Positions 8,426 through 55,275 of a DNA stretch of 64,000 nt are shown here, in pieces. The position numbers and the translations under genes are program-made. The notes beneath the pieces are model-generated. The model did not search any database. It saw only the letters and a program-made list of their open reading frames with translations, and was not told the origin of the DNA. Position 1 is the first letter of the stretch, and each line of letters opens with the position of its first letter. Origin of the DNA: Clostridia bacterium (GTDB lineage: Bacteria > Bacillota > Clostridia > Oscillospirales > CAG-272); NCBI GenBank assembly GCA_017482355.1, contig JAFUNJ010000002.1, positions 11,092-75,091 of the forward strand. The letters are read 5' to 3'.

Positions 8426-8427
8426 GT

Positions 8428-8720
8428 TTTTACCACTTTTCTTTGCTCGTGCAAAGAAAAGTTCCAAAAGAAAGCACGCCAAGGGGAAAACCGATAAAAA
8501 CGCGTTCGCGTTTTTTATACGTTTTCCCCTTTGGAAACCCCTTTCGTTTTAAGGAAGATTTACCACGTTGTCTTGCCTTCCCCTCAGGGGAAGGTGGCGG
8601 CGAAGCCGTCGGATGAGGTGTAGGTTGCGAAGCAACCGTGTGTTGAAGGAAAGTAACATCGTTTTTGCACGGAAGGGGGACCCCTTCCCCACGAGAATGA
8701 TTTTATATTTTTTCGCAATA
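8428..8720. repeat. Modular hairpin-chain intergenic repeat, family 1
   Basis: Nested and serial stem-loops at 8436-8461, 8494-8518, 8576-8594, 8596-8610 and 8623-8637. Shares modules with 10832-11075, 39190-39487, 43403-43759 and 54741-54905. 8610-8666 is a perfect reverse-complement copy of 39283-39339. Confidence 0.85.
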
Positions 8721-8721
8721 C

Positions 8722-8748
8722 AAAAAAGGACGGAAGAACCGTCCTTTT
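8722..8748. terminator. Bidirectional terminator between the M14 peptidase gene and hemW
   Basis: A6, ggacgg-aagaa-ccgtcc, T4. Confidence 0.65.
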
Positions 8749-8754
8749 GGGTGA

Positions 8755-9942
8755 TTATTTATCGGTGCCGTTTGCGATGCCTGAGAGGATATCGCTGTCG
8801 AAATCGAACATTGATGAGAGGATATAGTTTGAAACGTACATTCCCTTCGGCGTGAACGACCAGCTTCTGTCCTTCTTACGGACGAAGCCGTTTTTCTCAT
8901 ATTTTTCGAGGTATTTACCGAAGAGACGCTCGAAATCTATTCCGAACGCAGCAGCGAAAAACTCGGTATCTACGCCCTCGCTCAGGCGCATACGGAGCAT
9001 TACGTATTCGCCGATGCGCTCGTTATCTTTGATCTCATAATTTTCGCTCAGGATATCGGGAACGCTGCCCGGCATTTCCATATTCTTAACGTAATCGGAG
9101 ATATTCTTCTTATAAGCGAAGCGGCGGTTTCCGAAATAGGAATGTGCGCCCGGTCCGAAGCCGATATATTCCTCGCAGTTCCAATAGCGCAGGTTATGCA
9201 CACACTGATGTCCCGGCTTCGAGAAGTTACTTATCTCGTACTGCGCGTAGCCCTTTGAGGAAAGATATTCGACCGTATCGAAATACATCTTACACTCGGT
9301 GTCCTCGTCGGGAAGCGCGAGGGTATCCTTTCTTTCGTCAAAGGGTGTTCCCTCCTCGATCTTCAGTCCGTACACCGAGATATGCTCGGGGCGGAGCGCG
9401 GTCACTGTTCTGAGCGTATTTGCGAAGCTTTCGGGGGTCTGATTCGGGATACCGTACATAAGGTCGATGCTTATATTATCGAAGCCCGCCTTACGTGCGA
9501 TACGGTAGCTTTCTTCAAAATCCGCGTAGGTATGTATTCTTCCGAGAGCGCGAAGCTCGTCATCGTTTGCGCTTTGCAGTCCTATGCTGAGACGGTTCAC
9601 GCCTGCGTGACGGAGCTTGCGGAGAGACGCTGTTTTAAGCGTCGCAGGGTTTGCCTCGATAGTGAATTCTGCGTCTCCGCAGACGTTGAAGTTATCATAT
9701 ATGCCGTCGATGACCTTAAGGAGCTGCTTTGTACTCAGCATTGAGGGCGTACCGCCGCCGAAGAAAATACTGTCGACATCGTGGCGCGATGCCGCCTTTG
9801 CATAGTCCTGCATCTGAAGCACTATCGCGTTTACGTATCTGTCTGCACAGGACGAATCGGTTATTGAATAGAAGTCACAGTACGGGCATTTACTTTGGCA
9901 AAATGGAAAATGGATATATAAGCCGAGAGTTTTATCTGTCAT
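8755..9942 (-). CDS. hemW: Radical SAM heme chaperone HemW (HemN-like)
   Basis: 395 aa. LYIHFPFCQSKCPYCDF (CxxxCxxC) and a HemN_C-like C-terminus. Confidence 0.9.
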   Translation of the reverse strand: MTDKTLGLYIHFPFCQSKCPYCDFYSITDSSCADRYVNAIVLQMQDYAKAASRHDVDSIFFGGGTPSMLSTKQLLKVIDGIYDNFNVCGDAEFTIEANPATLKTASLRKLRHAGVNRLSIGLQSANDDELRALGRIHTYADFEESYRIARKAGFDNISIDLMYGIPNQTPESFANTLRTVTALRPEHISVYGLKIEEGTPFDERKDTLALPDEDTECKMYFDTVEYLSSKGYAQYEISNFSKPGHQCVHNLRYWNCEEYIGFGPGAHSYFGNRRFAYKKNISDYVKNMEMPGSVPDILSENYEIKDNERIGEYVMLRMRLSEGVDTEFFAAAFGIDFERLFGKYLEKYEKNGFVRKKDRSWSFTPKGMYVSNYILSSMFDFDSDILSGIANGTDK

Positions 9943-10831: not shown

Positions 10832-11075
10832 TCATTTGCAGGGGAGGTGTCTCCCTCTCGCATAAAACAATGTTACATCGTTTTAAAACACCTCATTCAC
10901 CGCTACCGCGGCCCCCTTCCCCAAGGGGAAGGCAAGACAACGTGGCAAAGCTTCATTAAATCGAAAGGGGGTTCCAAAGGGGAAAACGTGTGCAGAATTT
11001 TGCCTTTGCAAAATTCAAACCCGTTGTCACCTTGGTGCCGTTCTTTGCTGTAGGTTTGCGAAGCAAAACTACTCA
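10832..11075. repeat. Modular hairpin-chain intergenic repeat, family 1
   Basis: Contains aaaacaatgttac (10864-10876), ccttccccaaggggaagg (10915-10932), aaatcgaaagggggttccaaaggggaaaacgt (10958-10989), hairpin 10995-11016 and gtttgc-gaa-gcaaa. Confidence 0.85.
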
Positions 11076-11129
11076 TTTCATTGGGCAAGCAAGAAAGTTG
11101 AAAAAAAACAACGATACCATAAGAAAACC

Positions 11130-17104: not shown

Positions 17105-17240
17105 TGCCTCGACGATCCGCGCAAAAACAATGTTGCTTTGCTTACAAGACGGGCGAGCAATGCTCGCCCCTACGAGGACGTTTGGAATCCTCTTGTAGGG
17201 GCGACCATTGGTCGCCCGTGTAAAAACGATGTTGCTCCTT
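17105..17240. repeat. Family-1-related hairpin block
   Basis: cctcgacgatccgcgcaaaaacaatgttgc, gggcgagc-aa-tgctcgccc and gtaggggcgacc-attg-gtcgcccgtgtaaaaacgatgttgc. Confidence 0.7.
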
Positions 17241-39189: not shown

Positions 39190-39487
39190 AAAATTCTGCC
39201 ACCCTTGTAGGGGGCGACCTCTCGGAACCCCAAAAATTCGCGTTCGCTCGTTTCGGGGAACCCCTACCTCGATGCCCCGTATAAAAACGATGTTACTTTC
39301 CTTCAACACACGGTTGCTTCGCAACCTACACCTCATCCGGTCTCGAGTAGTTTGTGCTTCGCACAACCTACCGCTCAACCACCTTCCCCAAGGGGAAGGC
39401 AAGGCGGCGTTCGCTTTACGCGTTATGTAGATAACAGAGTGAGCGTGGGAGCGGCGGACGGTCGGGGACGCCCGTTCCTACAAATTA
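39190..39487. repeat. Modular hairpin-chain intergenic repeat, family 1
   Basis: Modules gtaggggg..., cggggaacccctacctcga (39254-39272), aaaaacgatgttac (39283-39296), ggttgc-ttc-gcaacc, ccttccccaaggggaagg (39382-39399) and gtgagcgtgggagcggcggacggtcgggg (39439-39467). Confidence 0.85.
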
Positions 39488-39540
39488 ACGTTCGATATAC
39501 CTTTGTATGGTGAGAGGTATCCCATCTCGCACAAAAGCAC

Positions 39541-40547: not shown

Positions 40548-40590
40548 TGTGTCGCCTTCCCCAAGGGGAAGGCTTAATTGCGTTCTATCT
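40548..40590. repeat. Solo family-1 module between metY and metA
   Basis: gtcgccttccccaaggggaaggc (hairpin 40555-40572), identical to the hairpin at 10915-10932 and 39382-39399. Confidence 0.75.
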
Positions 40591-43353: not shown

Positions 43354-43390
43354 AAAATCTCTCTGCTGAATTTCGGCAGGGAGATTTTTT
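43354..43390 (+). terminator. Rho-independent terminator
   Basis: atctctctgc-tgaatttcg-gcagggagat followed by T6. Confidence 0.7.
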
Positions 43391-43402
43391 AATGTAGCAA
43401 AT

Positions 43403-43759
43403 AGCGTGAGCGCGGGAGCGGCGGACAGTCGAGGCGAGGGGGTCCCCGAAACGAGCGAATGCGAGTTTTGGGGGTTCCCGAGGTTGCCTGTCCCTAAAAA
43501 TCGACGTGGCGAAGCTTCGCCCGAGATTCCGCCGCGCATACGCGCGAACCCCAAAAGCTCGTTGCATTCGCATTTGGGAACCCCGCCGCTTCGGCGCCCT
43601 GCGGGTTCGACTTCGGACTTCGTCCTGCGCTCAGAATGACACGGGCAATCGAAAGGGGTATCCAAAGGGGAAAACGTGTGAAATTTGCTACGCAAATTTC
43701 ACGGTTTGCCTCTTGGCGTGTTTCTTTGGTCACCTTTCTTACACGAGTAAGAAAGGTGA
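43403..43759. repeat. Modular hairpin-chain intergenic repeat, family 1 (longest copy)
   Basis: gtgagcgcgggagcggcggacagtcgagg (43406-43434), ggcgaagcttcgcc palindrome, aatcgaaaggggtatccaaaggggaaaacgt (43647-43677), 11-bp hairpin 43678-43702 and 12-bp hairpin 43730-43759. Confidence 0.85.
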
Positions 43760-43762
43760 GAT

Positions 43763-46195
43763 TCAAACCACCCTCACCGCAACAACCGTCATATCGTCGC
43801 TTCTTTCGTTATTTTTCTTTGCTTTTTCGAGGATTGAACGGGCTATATTCGCAAGCGGACCGTCTGCGTCGATCTCCTCCGAGAGCATCGAAAGAAGCCA
43901 CGCTCCGTCCTCGAAGCTTTGGCTTACACCGTCGCTCACCATTACGATAAGGTCGTCCTTTTCAAGCTTAAATTTGACCTCCTCCGACGCGATCTCGCGC
44001 GTTATTCCTATCGGAAGCGACTTCGACGCGATCTTGAAAAGGCGTCCTTTTCTTATAACGTACGACGCCGCCGCGCCGCTTTTGATGAACGACGCTTCGC
44101 CCGTCAGCATATCAACTTCAAGCAGGTCGACGGTCGCGAAGCATTCGAGGTTTTTATTTCTTATAAAATTATTGAGCATTTTTAGCACCGTGTGCTTTTT
44201 ATTGCCCGCCGCAAGGAGCTTGCTTAAGAATATACCCGTCGTTTTCGAGGTCATGGACGCGTCCTCGCCGCTTCCCATTCCGTCGCTTATCAGCGCGTAA
44301 TACTTATCCTCGCAGTTTTCAAACACTATCGCGCTGTCGCCGTTGACCTCCTCGCCCTTCTTCTTCACCGATGCGCGTGCGGATTCGCACCCGACCGTTC
44401 GTTTTGCGCTTGCGAGCATCGTCGTGTAGTCGTCTTCCACCTTGAATTCGGGGCTCGTCAGCTCTACTCCGCAGGCGAGAGAGAAGGTTTTTCTCATTTC
44501 CTCCGTTGTCAGGCGGACGTTTTCAAGGTCGATACCGCCGCCGATGACGGTCTTTTTTCTTTTTCCGTAGACCGCTATACTGTGGAAGCCCATCCCCATA
44601 TCGAGCGCCGCCCTCCGTACCTTCTCAGTCAGTGCGCCGTCGAGGACGTACTCCTGCGCGTTCTCCTCCGATGCCTCCGAAAGCAGCTTTGCCATTGCCT
44701 CGTAATCGAGCGCGAACACCTCAGTCTTATTCTGCTTCGCGGCACTTTCAAGCAGTCGCGCATGTGTGAGATTGACCTCCGAAAGCGCCTTTACCGTGTT
44801 CGGACAGATGTCGAGAAAATGGCTCGGCACATACGAGGAATCAGCGTTTCCGTGCCTTACGACGGCGTTTGCCAGCTTATTCATCACGTCGGCGGTCCTT
44901 TCGTATTCGCGACCCCAGCAGACCATATTTTGAGAACATGATTTACAGTATTTTTTAAATGACGCCTCGCATATACCCCTCACCTGCCACGCGCCCGGGG
45001 TAGTGAGTCGATTCGAGAGCGCGTAGAAAACGCTTGACAGCGATGTCATGGCATCAGAAAGCGCGTTCAGCCGTACCGTCATTGCCTCCTCCTTTTTGCT
45101 TATCAGCATCGTCGTGCTTGACGCCTCCTCGCTCATAACGGTGCGGCTTCCGAGAATACTCAGCTTCGCACCTCCCCCGAATCTGACTATCGGCAGACAT
45201 ATTGCTCCGCCCCACAAAAGCGCCGGCACCGTCGTCATCAGCGACGGGCTTCCGCCCGTTATGAGCGCAAATATCACGCCGCCTACGCATCCTCCTCCGA
45301 CAGAGGCGATCTGCGAATAGCTTCTGAGCGTGCCCGCGATCGCGCCGATCAGTCCCAGCATGACCGCCTCCTCTGCCCCTATGCAGAGTCCGCCTGCCAT
45401 TCCGATAAGACCGCCCTTGACGCTTCCGCCGCCGAGAGCTGAAGTCAACGTCATAAGTGAGCCGACCACCAAGGCGGGAGAGAAGCCGAGCAAGCTGAAG
45501 CTTTTAAGACCGATGATCAGTGATAGATAGAGGGCGAATGAGCCGAGCTCCGCGCGTGTATTCCCCTCTCTTTTTTTGCCGAGCGCACCTGAATAGAGAT
45601 ACGCAGAAAGCGGCACTGCAAATATCAGAAATATTGCCTGAAAGAGCTGCTTCTGACCGAAGCCGCCTGCGAAAATTCCGTAAATTCCGCATACAAATCC
45701 GCCTGCCGCACCGACCGCCAACCGCAGTGACAGCGGCTCGGAAAATATCCTTTCGCGCCGTCCTTCAAGAATGTAGGACACGAGAAAACGTATTATCACA
45801 ATAAGCAACGAGGCAACAAAATATATCGTTCTGTGATCTCCGTAAAGAGACGAAAGCAGTATTCCGCTCAAAACCCAGCCGACCCGTTTTTCGCTTCCCG
45901 TCAGGAACGCGAGTCCGAACGGCATCGTTCCGTCAAATACCTCTGCGCGCGACAAAGTAAATGCGAAAATGAAGGACGCGATGCCCTTCAGTGCCGATTC
46001 AGCCGTCTTCGACTGCGTTTTTTCGGCGCTCTTTTCGGTTTTTACGTATGTACCTACCCATTTTGATAGCTGCGCTATTATTCCCTTTTCTTTTTTCTTC
46101 TCAGAGTCCGTTTTTTCCATTTTTTCGTCCGTCCTTTGTTTTAGTAAGTCACATTTTACACCAAAGCTACCGCGCAGTCTGTCGAAGTCGCTCAC
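43763..46195 (-). CDS. spoIIE: Stage II sporulation protein E (PP2C phosphatase)
   Basis: 810 aa. About 10 N-terminal TM helices, a central regulatory region and a C-terminal PP2C domain (SDGMGSGEDA ... DDMTVVAVRV). The start may be an internal Met. Confidence 0.9.
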   Translation of the reverse strand: MSDFDRLRGSFGVKCDLLKQRTDEKMEKTDSEKKKEKGIIAQLSKWVGTYVKTEKSAEKTQSKTAESALKGIASFIFAFTLSRAEVFDGTMPFGLAFLTGSEKRVGWVLSGILLSSLYGDHRTIYFVASLLIVIIRFLVSYILEGRRERIFSEPLSLRLAVGAAGGFVCGIYGIFAGGFGQKQLFQAIFLIFAVPLSAYLYSGALGKKREGNTRAELGSFALYLSLIIGLKSFSLLGFSPALVVGSLMTLTSALGGGSVKGGLIGMAGGLCIGAEEAVMLGLIGAIAGTLRSYSQIASVGGGCVGGVIFALITGGSPSLMTTVPALLWGGAICLPIVRFGGGAKLSILGSRTVMSEEASSTTMLISKKEEAMTVRLNALSDAMTSLSSVFYALSNRLTTPGAWQVRGICEASFKKYCKSCSQNMVCWGREYERTADVMNKLANAVVRHGNADSSYVPSHFLDICPNTVKALSEVNLTHARLLESAAKQNKTEVFALDYEAMAKLLSEASEENAQEYVLDGALTEKVRRAALDMGMGFHSIAVYGKRKKTVIGGGIDLENVRLTTEEMRKTFSLACGVELTSPEFKVEDDYTTMLASAKRTVGCESARASVKKKGEEVNGDSAIVFENCEDKYYALISDGMGSGEDASMTSKTTGIFLSKLLAAGNKKHTVLKMLNNFIRNKNLECFATVDLLEVDMLTGEASFIKSGAAASYVIRKGRLFKIASKSLPIGITREIASEEVKFKLEKDDLIVMVSDGVSQSFEDGAWLLSMLSEEIDADGPLANIARSILEKAKKNNERSDDMTVVAVRVV

Positions 46196-50175: not shown

Positions 50176-50268
50176 TAAGGGGAAGGCGAGACAACGTCCC
50201 CGATGCTTCGCCATGTTTTTTGTAGGGACAGGCGTCCTCGACTGTCCGCACAAAAACAATATTACTTA
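50176..50268. repeat. Short family-1 repeat block
   Basis: ggggaaggcgagacaacgt (half of the P hairpin plus its flank), gtagggacaggcgtcctcgactgtccg and aaaaacaatattac (50252-50265). Confidence 0.75.
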
Positions 50269-54740: not shown

Positions 54741-54905
54741 AAAAAAGCACACATTTTCCCCTCCCCAAACCCCTTTCGATTTAAAGAAGCTTTGTGACGT
54801 TTAATTGTAGGGACGGGCAACCTCGGGAACCCCCAAAGCTCATTGCATTCGCTTCGGGGAACCCCTACCTCGACCGTCCGTTACTCCCACGTCCATTATA
54901 TCCGC
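54741..54905. repeat. Modular hairpin-chain intergenic repeat, family 1
   Basis: Reverse-complement copy of aaatcgaaagggg...ggggaaaa (54751-54783), gtagggacgggcaacctcgggaaccccc, cggggaacccctacctcga (54855-54873) and cctcgaccgtccgttactcccac (54868-54890). Confidence 0.85.
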
Positions 54906-55188: not shown

Positions 55189-55275
55189 GCGGGTATGGCG
55201 GAATTGGCAGACGCGCTAGATTCAGGTTCTAGTGGTAGCAATACTGTACAGGTTCAAGTCCTGCTACCCGCACCA
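55189..55275 (+). tRNA. tRNA-Leu (anticodon CAG), class II with a long variable arm, CCA encoded
   Basis: GCGGGTA acceptor pairs with TACCCGC. Anticodon stem CTAGA/TCTAG with loop TTCAGGT. T arm CAGGTTCAAGTCCTG. 87 nt ending in CCA. Confidence 0.95.

Follow-up and report, generated by a model that had tools for sequence, protein, structure and literature searches.

How can hairpins be replaced inside a scaffold that stays the same? The question is raised by three dispersed stretches of a 64,000-nucleotide piece of DNA from a Clostridia bacterium (the window), which an earlier note described as one scaffold carrying two hairpins of entirely different sequence, a pattern ascribed either to a selected secondary structure or to a templated hairpin-generating mechanism. 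The stretches are copies of one undescribed, many-copy intergenic repeat of gut Oscillospiraceae. On balance, the whole is probably best explained by a modular repeat that consists of a long hairpin (P1) and a pseudoknot, exchanges modules between its copies and would have a cis role as RNA.

Copies, hosts and limits of the repeat

Common to the three stretches is an exact 16-mer, CCAAAGGGGAAAACGT, located at 8519–8534 on the minus strand and at 10974–10989 and 43662–43677 on the plus strand, which bears out the three scaffold occurrences first described. Every other match in the window has at least three mismatches, and the observed count was reached in 0/100 dinucleotide shuffles. The scaffold itself had been drawn incompletely: it is not single-stranded, as its halves pair together (CCAAAGGGGAAAACG with CGGTTTGCCCCTTGG), and the shared unit is longer, a core element of ~120–150 nt (8427–8548, 10960–11108 and 43648–43766 in the window). 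These core elements are embedded in larger mosaics of other repeats. The self-pairing of the scaffold, the pseudoknot and the multicopy mosaic family had escaped the earlier note.

Copy 3 (43648–43766, plus strand) is a full core (cmsearch 106.9 bits, E=2e-24; model positions 1–126), made up of the leader, P1, the 3′ pseudoknot domain and an A-rich tail, with a predicted RNA fold of −51.8 kcal/mol (z=−7.8). Directly upstream, at 43392–43647 (plus), the sequence and direct repeat D10, shared with 39425–39467, reveal a mosaic of other repeat modules, in which a GGGGTCCCC...GGGGGTTCCC module is nested within a REP-like hairpin and a GCGAAGC motif also occurs. Copy 1 (8427–8548, minus strand; 126.2 bits, E=4e-29) is also a full core, folding at −51.0 kcal/mol (z=−6.9). 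Its upstream modules at 8549–8700 (minus), recognized by alignment with copy 2, a 21-mer repeat and a terminator scan, are a hairpin CCTTCCCCTGAGGGGAAGG, then CAAGACAACGTGG..CTTCCTTAAAA, then more hairpins. Copy 2 (10960–11108, plus strand; 85.7 bits, E=4e-19) is a full core by cmsearch and sequence, preceded at 10850–10959 (plus) by a CCCCTTCCCCAAGGGGAAGG hairpin and then CAAGACAACGTGGCAAAGCTTCATTAA, of families D2 and D11. It folds poorly (RNAfold z=−1.6), which counts against the explanation preferred here. A fourth copy at 54751–54801 (minus), evident from the sequence and direct repeat D5 (78%), is truncated and degenerate: beyond the upstream module and the leader, only a mutated S5 (GGGGTTTGGGGAGGGGAAAATGT) is left. 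It has a weak cmsearch match at 54753–54780, and flank comparison places a full element at the orthologous locus L072.

Beyond the window, 21-mer matches occur in more than 106 genomic stretches among those listed, from about nine Clostridia/Oscillospiraceae MAGs labelled Clostridia bacterium, Eubacteriales bacterium, ‘Ruminococcus sp.’ or Faecousia. Every genome retrieved is multicopy for the repeat, with up to ~15–25 copies per MAG among the matches listed. With a covariance model (cmsearch), loci totalling 0.76 Mb gave 105 hits, and the 64-kb window exactly three full copies. All of the more than 100 copies found are intergenic; 39 had been placed inside ORFs by crude ORF-based calls, and these ORFs are spurious, laid over the repeats. 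The family is very likely a structured, modular, non-coding repeat.

The only Rfam match above the gathering threshold in the whole window was a tRNA; at E<=10 there was no credible match in 43400–43900, and loci with the other two subfamilies gave no match. A search of plasmids found no element, and one of phages a single match, which is partial and lies at the terminus of a faecal, unannotated ‘Bacteriophage sp.’ contig. A metagenome scan for a non-T base after AAAACG yielded P1-only relatives and chance matches, and no new 3′-domain classes. Contigs encoding an identical HemN-like protein were 99.96–99.99% identical to the window, too close to be informative on strain-level polymorphism.

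P1, the 3′ domain and a candidate triple helix

Since the scaffold pairs with itself, hairpin 1 of the earlier note, confirmed in all three copies (43678–43702, 10995–11016 and, as reverse complement, 8496–8515), is no more than the variable tip of a single long hairpin. Judged by its sequence, P1 is a long bulged hairpin on the strand given. In copy 3 it spans 43662–43716 (plus), the basal stem pairing CCAAAGGGGAAAACG (43662–43676) with CGGTTTGCCTCTTGG (43702–43716) below the variable tip at 43678–43702; among the 105 copies, covariation is seen in basal and tip pairs alike. The corresponding S5, tip and S3 lie at 8520–8534, 8494–8518 and 8479–8493 in copy 1 (minus) and at 10974–10988, 10990–11019 and 11020–11035 in copy 2 (plus). 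The base, CCAAAGGGGAAAACG / CGGTT(T/G)(G/T)CCCCTTGG, is conserved in sequence, and the A/T-rich tip is free to vary provided that pairing is kept. The stems do not differ entirely, as had been stated; they are a few related A/T-rich variants that recur across many copies and genomes.

A selected secondary structure, the first of the two causes proposed, is upheld. Among the 105 members, 93.6% of all stem cells are paired compared to 80.1% in column shuffles (0/500), and 31 of the 40 stem pairs are changed on both sides. Pairing falls to 51–56% when stem partners are slid by one column. Columns 40/55 read UA in 53 members and AU in 47, with zero mismatches, and columns 37/58 read GC in 47 and AU in 44. 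Stem wobbles (G.U 78 vs A.C 18) indicate that folding is strand-specific. This G.U excess is equally compatible with one strand of DNA.

Hairpins downstream of genes, as the element is in the window, could be intrinsic terminators or attenuators that share their flanks by chance. The copy 1 tip, AAAAACGC-GAAC-GCGTTTTT, does score as terminator-like on both strands, and a U-rich tract (b) follows P1 by 4–5 nt. That tip variant is the only terminator-like one, however, and P1 and hairpin 2 are unflagged; the tail after hairpin 2 is A-rich and not T-rich, and the element lacks a GC-rich stem-loop with an immediate U tract. The mosaics of copies 1 and 3 are each preceded by a genuine terminator, several loci have one after the element, and the element is antisense in about one third of co-directional contexts. 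Chance sharing by terminators is thus very improbable.

On the strand given, the 3′ domain has the sequence and covariation of an H-type pseudoknot. It is likely to contain a pseudoknot stem, a/a′, of 4–5 bp, in which the nucleotides directly after P1 would pair with the loop of hairpin 2 (c/d), followed by an L3 that is constant at 2 nt. Although the a/a′ helix was left out of the model used for aligning, it is 92.7% paired vs 72.8% in shuffles (0/500), with a covariation score of 0.533 vs 0.240, and pairing drops to ~15% when it is slid by one column. Its pair types include CGTG/CACG, CACG/CGTG, TGCC/GGCA, CACC/GGTG, CGCA/TGCG, TGCA/TGCA, TGTG/CACA and TACG/CGTA, and within each of the four commonest 3′-domain types a takes two to seven different sequences. 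Hairpin 2 (helix 5) is 97% paired, with 9 of 11 pairs changing on both sides. An extra hairpin is tolerated exactly at the b–c turn.

In copy 3, hairpin 2 (43730–43759, plus) is inverted repeat I19, 100% complementary. The domain there reads a (CGTG, 43717–43720, placed by a/a′ covariation), b (TTTCTTTGG, 43721–43729, a pyrimidine linker and, by its run-length match to d, candidate Hoogsteen strand), c (tcacctttctta, 43730–43741), a′ (CACG, in the hairpin 2 loop, 43742–43745), L3 (AG, 43746–43747) and the purine arm d (taagaaaggtga, 43748–43759). Copy 1 (minus) has a CGTG at 8475–8478, b at 8464–8474, c at 8452–8462, a′ CACG at 8448–8451, d at 8435–8445 and the tail at 8427–8434. In copy 2 (plus), a TGCC is at 11036–11039, b at 11040–11047, c at 11073–11083, a′ GGCA at 11084–11087, d at 11090–11101 and the A tail at 11102–11108.

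Hairpin 2 was correctly recognized in copy 3 (13-nt arms 43730–43742 and 43747–43759, 100% complementary) and copy 1 (8428–8469), and misassigned in copy 2. The sequence named there, gtaggtttgc-gaa-gcaaaactac, is an extra insert that separates the 5′ arm of hairpin 2 from the pyrimidine linker; the real counterpart is degenerate, tcatttcattg-ggcaag-caagaaagttga (11073–11101). This insert, hairpin X (GTAGGTTTGC-GAA-GCAAAACTAC, 11050–11072, plus), sits in the b–c turn and recurs at the same position in ~12 other members (L018, L039, L040, L046, L055, L068, L084, L090, L103 and others).

The earlier note had also raised the reading that the hairpins are independent insertions of unrelated palindromes, with neither positional homology nor structural selection. 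It is true of hairpin X, the claimed hairpin 2 of copy 2, and of an extra hairpin in the P1 3′ strand of L007, L033 and L085. Homology and covariation contradict it for hairpin 1 and, in copies 1 and 3, for hairpin 2: tip and hairpin 2 have fixed positions in more than 90 copies, variants differ by compensated pair changes (columns 40/55 and 37/58), and the non-contiguous a/a′ strands covary. Covariation of the stems and of a/a′ largely refutes this reading, which as a general account can scarcely be credited.

Two other helices were considered and rejected. A leader–b helix (P0), which RNAfold prefers over the pseudoknot, is 81.5% paired vs 82.1% in shuffles and pairs better when slid by one column. 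Pairing of b and the turn (TTTGGAA) with TTCCAAA of S5 is complementary in some variants, with no matching variation by eye.

Linker b, a pyrimidine run of 7–9 nt, has about an even chance of lying in the major groove of hairpin 2 as the third strand of a triple helix, which would comprise U.A-U triples and one C+.G-C. It is the parallel complement of purine arm d in 64 of 66 asymmetric (informative) copies and the antiparallel complement in 0/66, as expected of a major-groove triple helix. The number of Ts 3′ of the C in b equals that of As 3′ of the G in d in 82/84 copies, counts that represent ~five linked sequence classes, or at least three coordinated changes, and the parallel register exceeds the antiparallel by a margin of only 1–2 contiguous positions. 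The layout is unchanged in a divergent Faecousia subfamily (CGGC-TCTTTGG..TTTCTG-GCCG-GA-CAGAAAG). In TCACC-type variants, outer pairs of hairpin 2 would need to open to leave a turn. The sequence has the ENE-type layout of facing U-rich strands, a lower stem and an A-rich tract able to pair both ways. A triplex of this kind would sequester the A-rich 3′ segment, and the 3′ domain might, tentatively, be a genuine ENE-like major-groove RNA triple helix that shields this segment from exonucleases.

Module exchange, mobility and genomic context

At orthologous loci, different species have different ready-made tip and 3′-type variants, and the two types assort independently (chi-square p=0.44 for tip against 3′ domain), which together imply that whole modules are exchanged between copies. 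Hairpin replacement is best explained by such whole-module exchange, both arms moving together, with selection removing mismatched products. The variant modules (tip, a/a′, b–c–d block and optional inserts) would be swapped between dispersed copies by gene conversion or re-insertion, and only products that still pair would persist. The element has a BOX-like modular composition, with independence of tip and 3′ domain, optional inserts and a replaceable P1, which is swapped for another hairpin in L088:2882-2988 and L040:4878-4980. A templated hairpin-generating mechanism, the second cause proposed originally, is not needed, since module exchange accounts for the replacement. Intrastrand templating may lie behind the contiguous palindromes; it fails for the 4-nt a/a′ pair because the two halves are 22–44 nt apart, across non-palindromic sequence.

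Conserved pairing could also be a requirement of mobility. The element would then be REPIN/BIME- or PATE-like non-autonomous mobile DNA, its single-stranded hairpins or triplex recognized by a Y1 transposase (RAYT or IS200-IS605-type) or by host DNA-binding proteins, and its pairing would be kept since the enzyme needs the fold. Its ends are compatible with this, being sharp at 3′ and mosaic at 5′, and neither feature of a MITE is found: the 5′ end ATCGAAAGGGG is not complementary to the 3′ end ..GTGGTAAAAA, and the longest k-mer common to both flanks has a mean of 3.36 nt vs 3.40 nt in shuffled pairings. A 522-nt mosaic is entire in L050 and missing from the same site in L032, and comparison of the filled and empty sites reveals no target duplication. 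Strand-specific folding and head-to-head pairs of elements among the loci also agree with mobile DNA, as do classic REP-like ‘GTAG + GC-rich hairpin’ units in the mosaics, including inverted REP pairs (17146–17222 and 39205–39270). The motif GCGAAGC, a DNA mini-hairpin of unusual stability, is found again in hairpin X. In REPINs themselves, conserved inverted ends enclose a spacer that varies yet forms a hairpin, and compensatory changes are frequent (PMC3116915).

Against mobility, the core lacks the GTAG head and short palindrome that define REPs, and orthologous loci in different species have kept their copies. The 0.76 Mb surrounding the copies yielded no Y1 transposase in a weak test, in which approximate YafM and IS200 TnpA queries (tblastn) gave only matches with E>0.07; the one that recurred lies in a radical-SAM/HemN-like protein. 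The combination of a pseudoknot, an L3 fixed at 2 nt and a pyrimidine strand in parallel is typical of RNA tertiary motifs and is not a known transposase substrate. Mobile DNA thus remains a credible, if less than probable, account. A candidate Y1 transposase beside copy 1 (weak tblastn match, 8833–9183) was discarded, as the protein is Radical_SAM + HemN_C by Pfam.

The sequence evidence leans slightly towards RNA, and not single-stranded DNA, as the form in which the fold acts. The proposed role is in cis: in transcripts that run through from adjacent genes, the fold would be a barrier to decay or processing in the manner of REP/BIME and BOX elements; such an RNA-stability role is possible, though doubtful. 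Copies lie in sense orientation between co-directional genes in 33 cases, antisense in 15, between convergent genes in 15 and between divergent genes in 9. The sense bias between co-directional genes is only 2:1. A terminator-like hairpin at 8724–8748 (minus) follows the radical-SAM gene, with the copy 1 modules downstream of it, and another at ~43357–43390 (by eye) separates the upstream gene from the copy 3 mosaic, so co-transcription of these copies would require read-through. GC skew was too weak (median 0.028) for replication-strand bias to tell RNA from DNA action, and was uncorrelated with gene direction at the 8-kb scale.

A further reading makes the element a riboswitch-like cis-regulatory leader, or a set of sRNA genes with their own promoters, whose pseudoknot binds a ligand or protein. 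SAM-II and preQ1-II riboswitches are H-type pseudoknots with loop–helix triples (reviewed in PMC13541005), and the sequences of the leader and the S5 motif are conserved across subfamilies. In L037, L043 and L093 the end of the element is the exact start of an FMN riboswitch aptamer; no consensus promoter was found there between the upstream terminator and the aptamer, so the element is probably part of that leader/promoter region. The genes neighbouring the copies, including those downstream, are unrelated to one another, the 15 convergent copies have nothing downstream to regulate, and 15 more are antisense between co-directional genes. No sigma-70-like promoter was detected upstream of the window copies. 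The repeat has no curated covariance-model match in Rfam, no fixed 5′ UTR position and no coherent gene set, and is many-copy in each retrieved genome. A regulatory leader is accordingly improbable. A candidate promoter in the upstream module, AAGACA-N16-TTAAAT, is no more than a lead, as it fails the A2/T6 criteria and was not flagged by the promoter scan.

Significance and comparison with known systems

Almost all work on structured interspersed repeats (REP/BIME, BOX, REPIN) concerns Proteobacteria and streptococci. The present family is new to Rfam and comes from uncultured gut Oscillospiraceae. It provides a natural experiment in which structural modules are shuffled between copies while pairing is kept in two hairpins and a non-contiguous pseudoknot stem. 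The elements also break MAG assemblies, many copies being at contig ends, and may confound intergenic annotation. Should the fold work in single-stranded DNA, a REP-type mobilization system in Firmicutes would have a substrate of unusual complexity. If the triplex is real, it would be the first bacterial counterpart of the PAN, MALAT1 and transposon ENEs, present many times per genome and arisen in a mobile or recombining repeat. ENE-like RNA protection would then no longer be limited to eukaryotes and their viruses, and its origin in repeat elements would be testable in bacteria.

Like the RAYT-associated REPIN and REP-BIME elements of Pseudomonas and Enterobacteria, the repeat is short, multicopy, strictly extragenic and set in mosaics with other modules, without TIRs or TSDs of the MITE kind. 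Its P1 base and paired tip correspond to the conserved inverted ends and variable hairpin-forming spacer of a REPIN. Loci of BIMEs are conserved between species though their content differs, as is the case here. In contrast to REPs, the core is not a 20–40 nt imperfect GC-rich palindrome with a GT(A/G)G head; REP-like GTAG hairpins occur separately in the same mosaics (17146–17222, 39205–39270 and 50221–50250). Unlike a REPIN, the element has a second domain with the pseudoknot and candidate triplex, no RAYT was found in the sampled sequence with approximate queries, and its host is a Firmicute (Clostridia), a group in which, to our knowledge, REP/RAYT systems are little described.

The BOX element of Streptococcus pneumoniae (boxA-boxB(n)-boxC) is likewise a modular composite intergenic repeat of a Firmicute, predicted to fold extensively if transcribed, and in both the rest of the fold is undisturbed by the loss or gain of internal modules. 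The sequences are dissimilar, and BOX varies the copy number of a tandem module whereas the present element places alternative variants in the same structural slot. We know of no pseudoknot or triplex described for BOX. BOX elements are thought to influence the expression of co-transcribed genes (PMC3049150).

The candidate triplex invites comparison with the ENE + A-rich tract of KSHV PAN, MALAT1/NEAT1 and plant and fungal transposon dENEs. The part order a/a′, b, c, optional hairpin X, linker, d is that of the lower stem, facing U-rich strands, optional upper stem-loop, short linker and genomically encoded A-rich tract, whose pairing can be Watson-Crick to one of the U-rich strands and Hoogsteen to the second. 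Both are dispersed, repeat-like units. The MALAT1 triple helix has one C+.G-C interruption, as would the element. In the present case the element is bacterial and known here from sequence, has no known mechanism of 3′-end formation, would span 6–8 triples and usually has a turn of 3–5 nt in place of the upper stem, so that it is better called an H-type pseudoknot. According to a 2026 review, prokaryotic RNA triplexes occur only in riboswitches and a group II intron (PMC13541005).

Among H-type pseudoknots that bear triples, the element differs from SAM-II and preQ1-II in having no conserved ligand pocket or Rfam match, in being tied to no gene class or 5′ UTR, and in its many copies per genome. 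With these riboswitches and telomerase RNA it shares the order S1-L1-S2-S1′-L3-S2′ with L2=0, a pyrimidine-rich L1 that is as long as S2 and the parallel complement of its purine strand, and a short, mostly purine L3.

Architecture of the repeat and its copies

When 65 copies of the repeat element are combined into a covariance model, the model finds exactly three full copies in the window, and also a fourth that is truncated (54753-54780). The full copies lie at 8427-8548 (-; copy 1; 126 bits), 10960-11108 (+; copy 2; 86 bits) and 43648-43766 (+; copy 3; 107 bits), flanked by ordinary chromosomal genes: a radical-SAM/HemN-like protein, an M14 carboxypeptidase, an M50 peptidase, an ABC ATPase, an HTH_3 regulator, SpoIIE and YpsA. 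The fourth (54751-54801, -) has lost all but an upstream module, the leader and, from the base of the first hairpin, a mutated S5; it adjoins tRNA-Leu(CAG) (55189-55275). It looks like a deletion remnant, since the orthologous locus L072 has a full element. Identical contigs are found in ENA metagenome assemblies.

On its own strand the element begins with a leader, CGAAAGGGGNTT, followed by a long hairpin, P1, whose base is conserved and whose tip is variable and A/T-rich (variants include gtgcAGAATTTTGC-loop-GCAAAATTCaaac, GAAAATTTGC-loop-GCAAATTTTC and AAAAAACGC-GAAC-GCGTTTTTT). The 3' domain runs from a (4-5 nt) through a pyrimidine run, b (T(2-4) C T(3-4) G), a turn of 3-5 nt or an inserted hairpin X, the 5' arm of hairpin 2 (c), a' (4-5 nt, within the hairpin-2 loop) and a 2-nt linker, usually AG, to the purine 3' arm d and an A-rich tail. 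At the 3' end the boundary is abrupt, information content falling to ~0.1 bit directly past the tail; the 5' side passes gradually into alternative upstream modules. No target duplication was found around the element, and it has no terminal inverted repeats.

An earlier note had described two exchangeable hairpins in a conserved scaffold. The scaffold 16-mer CCAAAGGGGAAAACGT indeed recurs exactly at 8519-8534 (-), 10974-10989 (+) and 43662-43677 (+), a count equalled in 0 of 100 dinucleotide-preserving shuffles, and all remaining matches in the window carry 3 mismatches. The scaffold was nevertheless misread, since its halves, CCAAAGGGGAAAACG and CGGTTT(T/G)CCCCTTGG, base-pair, interrupted by a single bulged A and in many copies also by an A.G mismatch. 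Hairpin 1, which can be read in all three copies at the coordinates claimed, is therefore the mere tip of P1. Hairpin 2 stands in copy 1 (8428-8469) and in copy 3, whose two arms (43730-43742 and 43747-43759) are 100% complementary, but not in copy 2. There, the hairpin assigned to it, GTAGGTTTGC-GAA-GCAAAACTAC (11050-11072), is an additional insertion that recurs at the identical position in about a dozen relatives, and the true hairpin 2 is degenerate (11073-11101).

Among loci fetched from other genomes and metagenomes, L088 (2882-2988, +) and L040 (4878-4980, +) have P1 swapped for another perfect hairpin of hairpin-2-like sequence, CCAGAAGGAACTTTTCTTTGC-GTA-CAAAGAAAAGTTCCTTTGG, with the 3' pseudoknot domain unaltered. 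An optional hairpin, for example GTAGTAAATTCTGCGAATTTACTAC, is inserted in the base of P1, on its 3' strand, in L007 (6220-6395, -), L033 (371-523, +) and L085 (6252-6400, +); like hairpin X, this insert tends to start with GTAG/GCAG and finish with CTAC/CTGC.

Covariation and a candidate triple helix

Across the 105-row model alignment, all stems are 93.6% paired versus 80.1% when shuffled (0/500), falling to 51-56% with partners slid by one column, and 31 of 40 stem pairs have changed on both sides. Tip columns 40/55 hold UA 53 times and AU 47 times with 0 mismatches, columns 37/58 hold GC (47) and AU (44), and columns 43/52 hold UA (87) and CG (16). The P1 base is also compensated, with GGAG/CTCC in five to six copies and G.U intermediates.

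Helix a/a' is not part of the model, so the alignment is unfitted to it. It is 92.7% paired versus 72.8% when shuffled (0/500), with a covariation score of 0.533 versus 0.240 and ~15% pairing when slid by plus or minus one. The observed pairs are CGTG/CACG, CACG/CGTG, TGCC/GGCA, CACC/GGTG, CGCA/TGCG, TGCA/TGCA, TGTG/CACA and TACG/CGTA. Each of the four commonest 3'-domain types holds two to seven distinct a sequences, implying many independent switches. With strands in the order a, c, a', d, helix a/a' crosses c/d, so that the predicted fold of the 3' domain is an H-type pseudoknot (L2 = 0; L3 always 2 nt). RNAfold favours a nested leader-b helix over this pseudoknot, but that helix has no covariation support. 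Because a/a' covaries and mismatched intermediates are nearly absent, comparison of the copies shows the pairing to be under selection, bearing out the selected secondary structure that the note had proposed.

The linker b is the parallel complement of d, not its reverse complement, and is thus the mirror image of c. The d arms AAAGAAAAG, AAGAAAAG and AAGAAAGG go with b runs TTTCTTTTG, TTCTTTTG and TTCTTTGG, respectively; a divergent Faecousia subfamily has AGAAAG with TCTTTG, and CGGC/GCCG as a/a'. The number of T's 3' of C in b equals that of A's 3' of G in d in 82 of 84 copies. Where the orientations differ (n=66), the parallel register holds in 64/66 copies and the antiparallel in 0/66, the former being ahead by just 1-2 contiguous positions. 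The register read from these copies is the one required by a pyrimidine-motif major-groove triplex (U.A-U, C+.G-C), and b occupies the place of L1 in an H-type pseudoknot. The chances that b forms a triple helix with hairpin 2 are put at about even, given this slim margin, the tight linkage of b, c and d, which leaves few independent coordinated changes (at least 3), and variants in which the triplex requires opening of the outer pairs of hairpin 2.

Module exchange, mosaics and distribution

Orthologous loci, assumed to be elements with a common downstream flank in different species, vary in tip variant, a/a' pair, b-c-d class and presence or absence of hairpin X. At one locus, window copy 1 and L071 carry the AAAGAAAAG class and L103 the AAGAAAAG class, in which b, c and d are each one nucleotide shorter. 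Tip type and 3'-domain type are independent across the family (chi-square p=0.44, Cramer's V 0.22). These differences and this independence are best explained by whole modules moving between copies, via gene conversion or repeated insertion. Such movement takes both hairpin arms together and so can leave the scaffold unchanged around stems that are 'entirely different', making the special hairpin generator entertained in the note unnecessary. In one filled/empty comparison (L050 versus L032), an entire 522-nt mosaic is present or absent with no duplication.

Copies are embedded in larger mosaics with other repeats, such as REP-like 'GTAG + GC-rich hairpin' units. At 17146-17222 in the window, such units form a REPIN-like inverted pair (GGGCGAGCAATGCTCGCCC-CTAC, a 21-nt spacer, GTAG-GGGCGACCATTGGTCGCCC) bordered by two copies of CC(G/C)GTGTAAAAAC(G/A)ATGTTGCT (direct-repeat family D9), and this pair suggests a REP/RAYT-type system in the genome. 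The same set of modules makes up further mosaics (39200-39490, 40552-40583 and 50177-50252), which contain CCTTCCCCAAGGGGAAGG hairpins (families D2/D11) and GTAG...CTAC units with a nested GGGGAACCCC module; their block 39425-39467 recurs upstream of copy 3 (43392-43434; D10). GCGAAGC, known as a DNA mini-hairpin of exceptional stability whose loop is GAA, recurs within hairpin X (11056-11064) and in upstream modules of many loci (e.g. 43508-43514), which hints at a DNA-hairpin role for some modules.

In a scan covering a single genome for each species, the matches listed place the 21-mer GGGNNTCCAAAGGGGAAAACG in >106 stretches, nearly all in nine gut MAGs (labelled Clostridia bacterium, Eubacteriales bacterium, 'Ruminococcus sp.' or Faecousia), with up to about 15-25 of those listed in a single MAG. 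The covariance model gives 105 hits in 0.76 Mb of fetched loci, some without the exact 21-mer. No family in Rfam 15 corresponds to the element; it is absent from the plasmids searched, and the phages searched gave a single partial match, located where an unannotated faecal 'Bacteriophage sp.' contig ends. Matches in Planctomycetota (L020, L051, L099), within a conserved stretch GGGCCTCCAAAGGGGAAAACGCCGACGAC, and in L108 and L111 have unrelated flanks and no P1 partner and were rejected as chance. Many copies lie within about 100 nt of MAG contig ends (e.g. L002, L016, L036, L049, L059, L069, L080, L083), suggesting that the family breaks short-read assemblies.

Subdoligranulum, Gemmiger and other Oscillospiraceae carry a third subfamily, seen in metagenome loci such as L091 (1750-1830, -), L025, L058 and L107. 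Here the leader and P1 base (GTCGAAAAGGGAATCCAAAGGGGAAAACG...CGTTGTCCTCTTTG) are kept, the tip is GC-rich, a conserved block (AAATTGTGTGCGAGG...) lies upstream, and there is no pseudoknot domain. The gene immediately downstream of the L091 copy looks ATP-synthase-beta-like by eye, from its N-terminal translation.

Folding strand, possible role and known systems

Stems contain 78 G.U against 18 A.C, so the strand given here is the folding strand. That this strand folds is established by the comparison of copies; the G.U excess fits RNA and one DNA strand equally. Most likely, we infer, the element acts as a cis-acting RNA fold that would form a barrier to decay or processing and in which the triplex would hold the A-rich 3' segment. 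The main rival is a single-stranded DNA, REPIN-like element. A weak test by tblastn found no Y1 transposase in 0.76 Mb around the copies. Between co-directional genes, 33 elements are sense and 15 antisense; 15 lie between convergent and 9 between divergent genes. Copies 1 and 3 lie past terminator-like hairpins of the upstream gene (by terminator scan and by eye, respectively), so their transcription would require read-through.

Elements in L037, L043 and L093 end exactly at the start of an FMN riboswitch aptamer. Head-to-head pairs, ~85 nt apart and right after a strong terminator, occur in L043 (2928-3374), L037 (2887-3331), L093 (953-1393) and L056 (50-379); the sense copy stops exactly at the first aptamer base (RF00050, 105-108 bits). 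Since the element abuts the aptamer and no consensus promoter was detected between upstream terminator and aptamer in L037, L043 and L093, these elements probably belong to the leader or promoter region.

At the genome level the repeat behaves as REP/BIME/REPIN and BOX elements do (PMC3116915, PMC3049150), and it is filed among structured interspersed repeats. Unlike REP, its core lacks the defining GTAG head and short GC palindrome, and no RAYT was found in the 0.76 Mb sampled. The stabilising triplexes listed in a 2026 review come only from viruses, lncRNAs and transposons of plants or fungi, and the prokaryotic triplexes it lists only from riboswitches and one group II intron (PMC13541005). 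With hairpin X, this element has the layout of an ENE: a lower stem, two strands rich in U, an upper stem-loop and then an A-rich tract. By analogy, the 3' domain would work like an ENE or triple-helix pseudoknot, and may constitute a bacterial ENE-like triplex.
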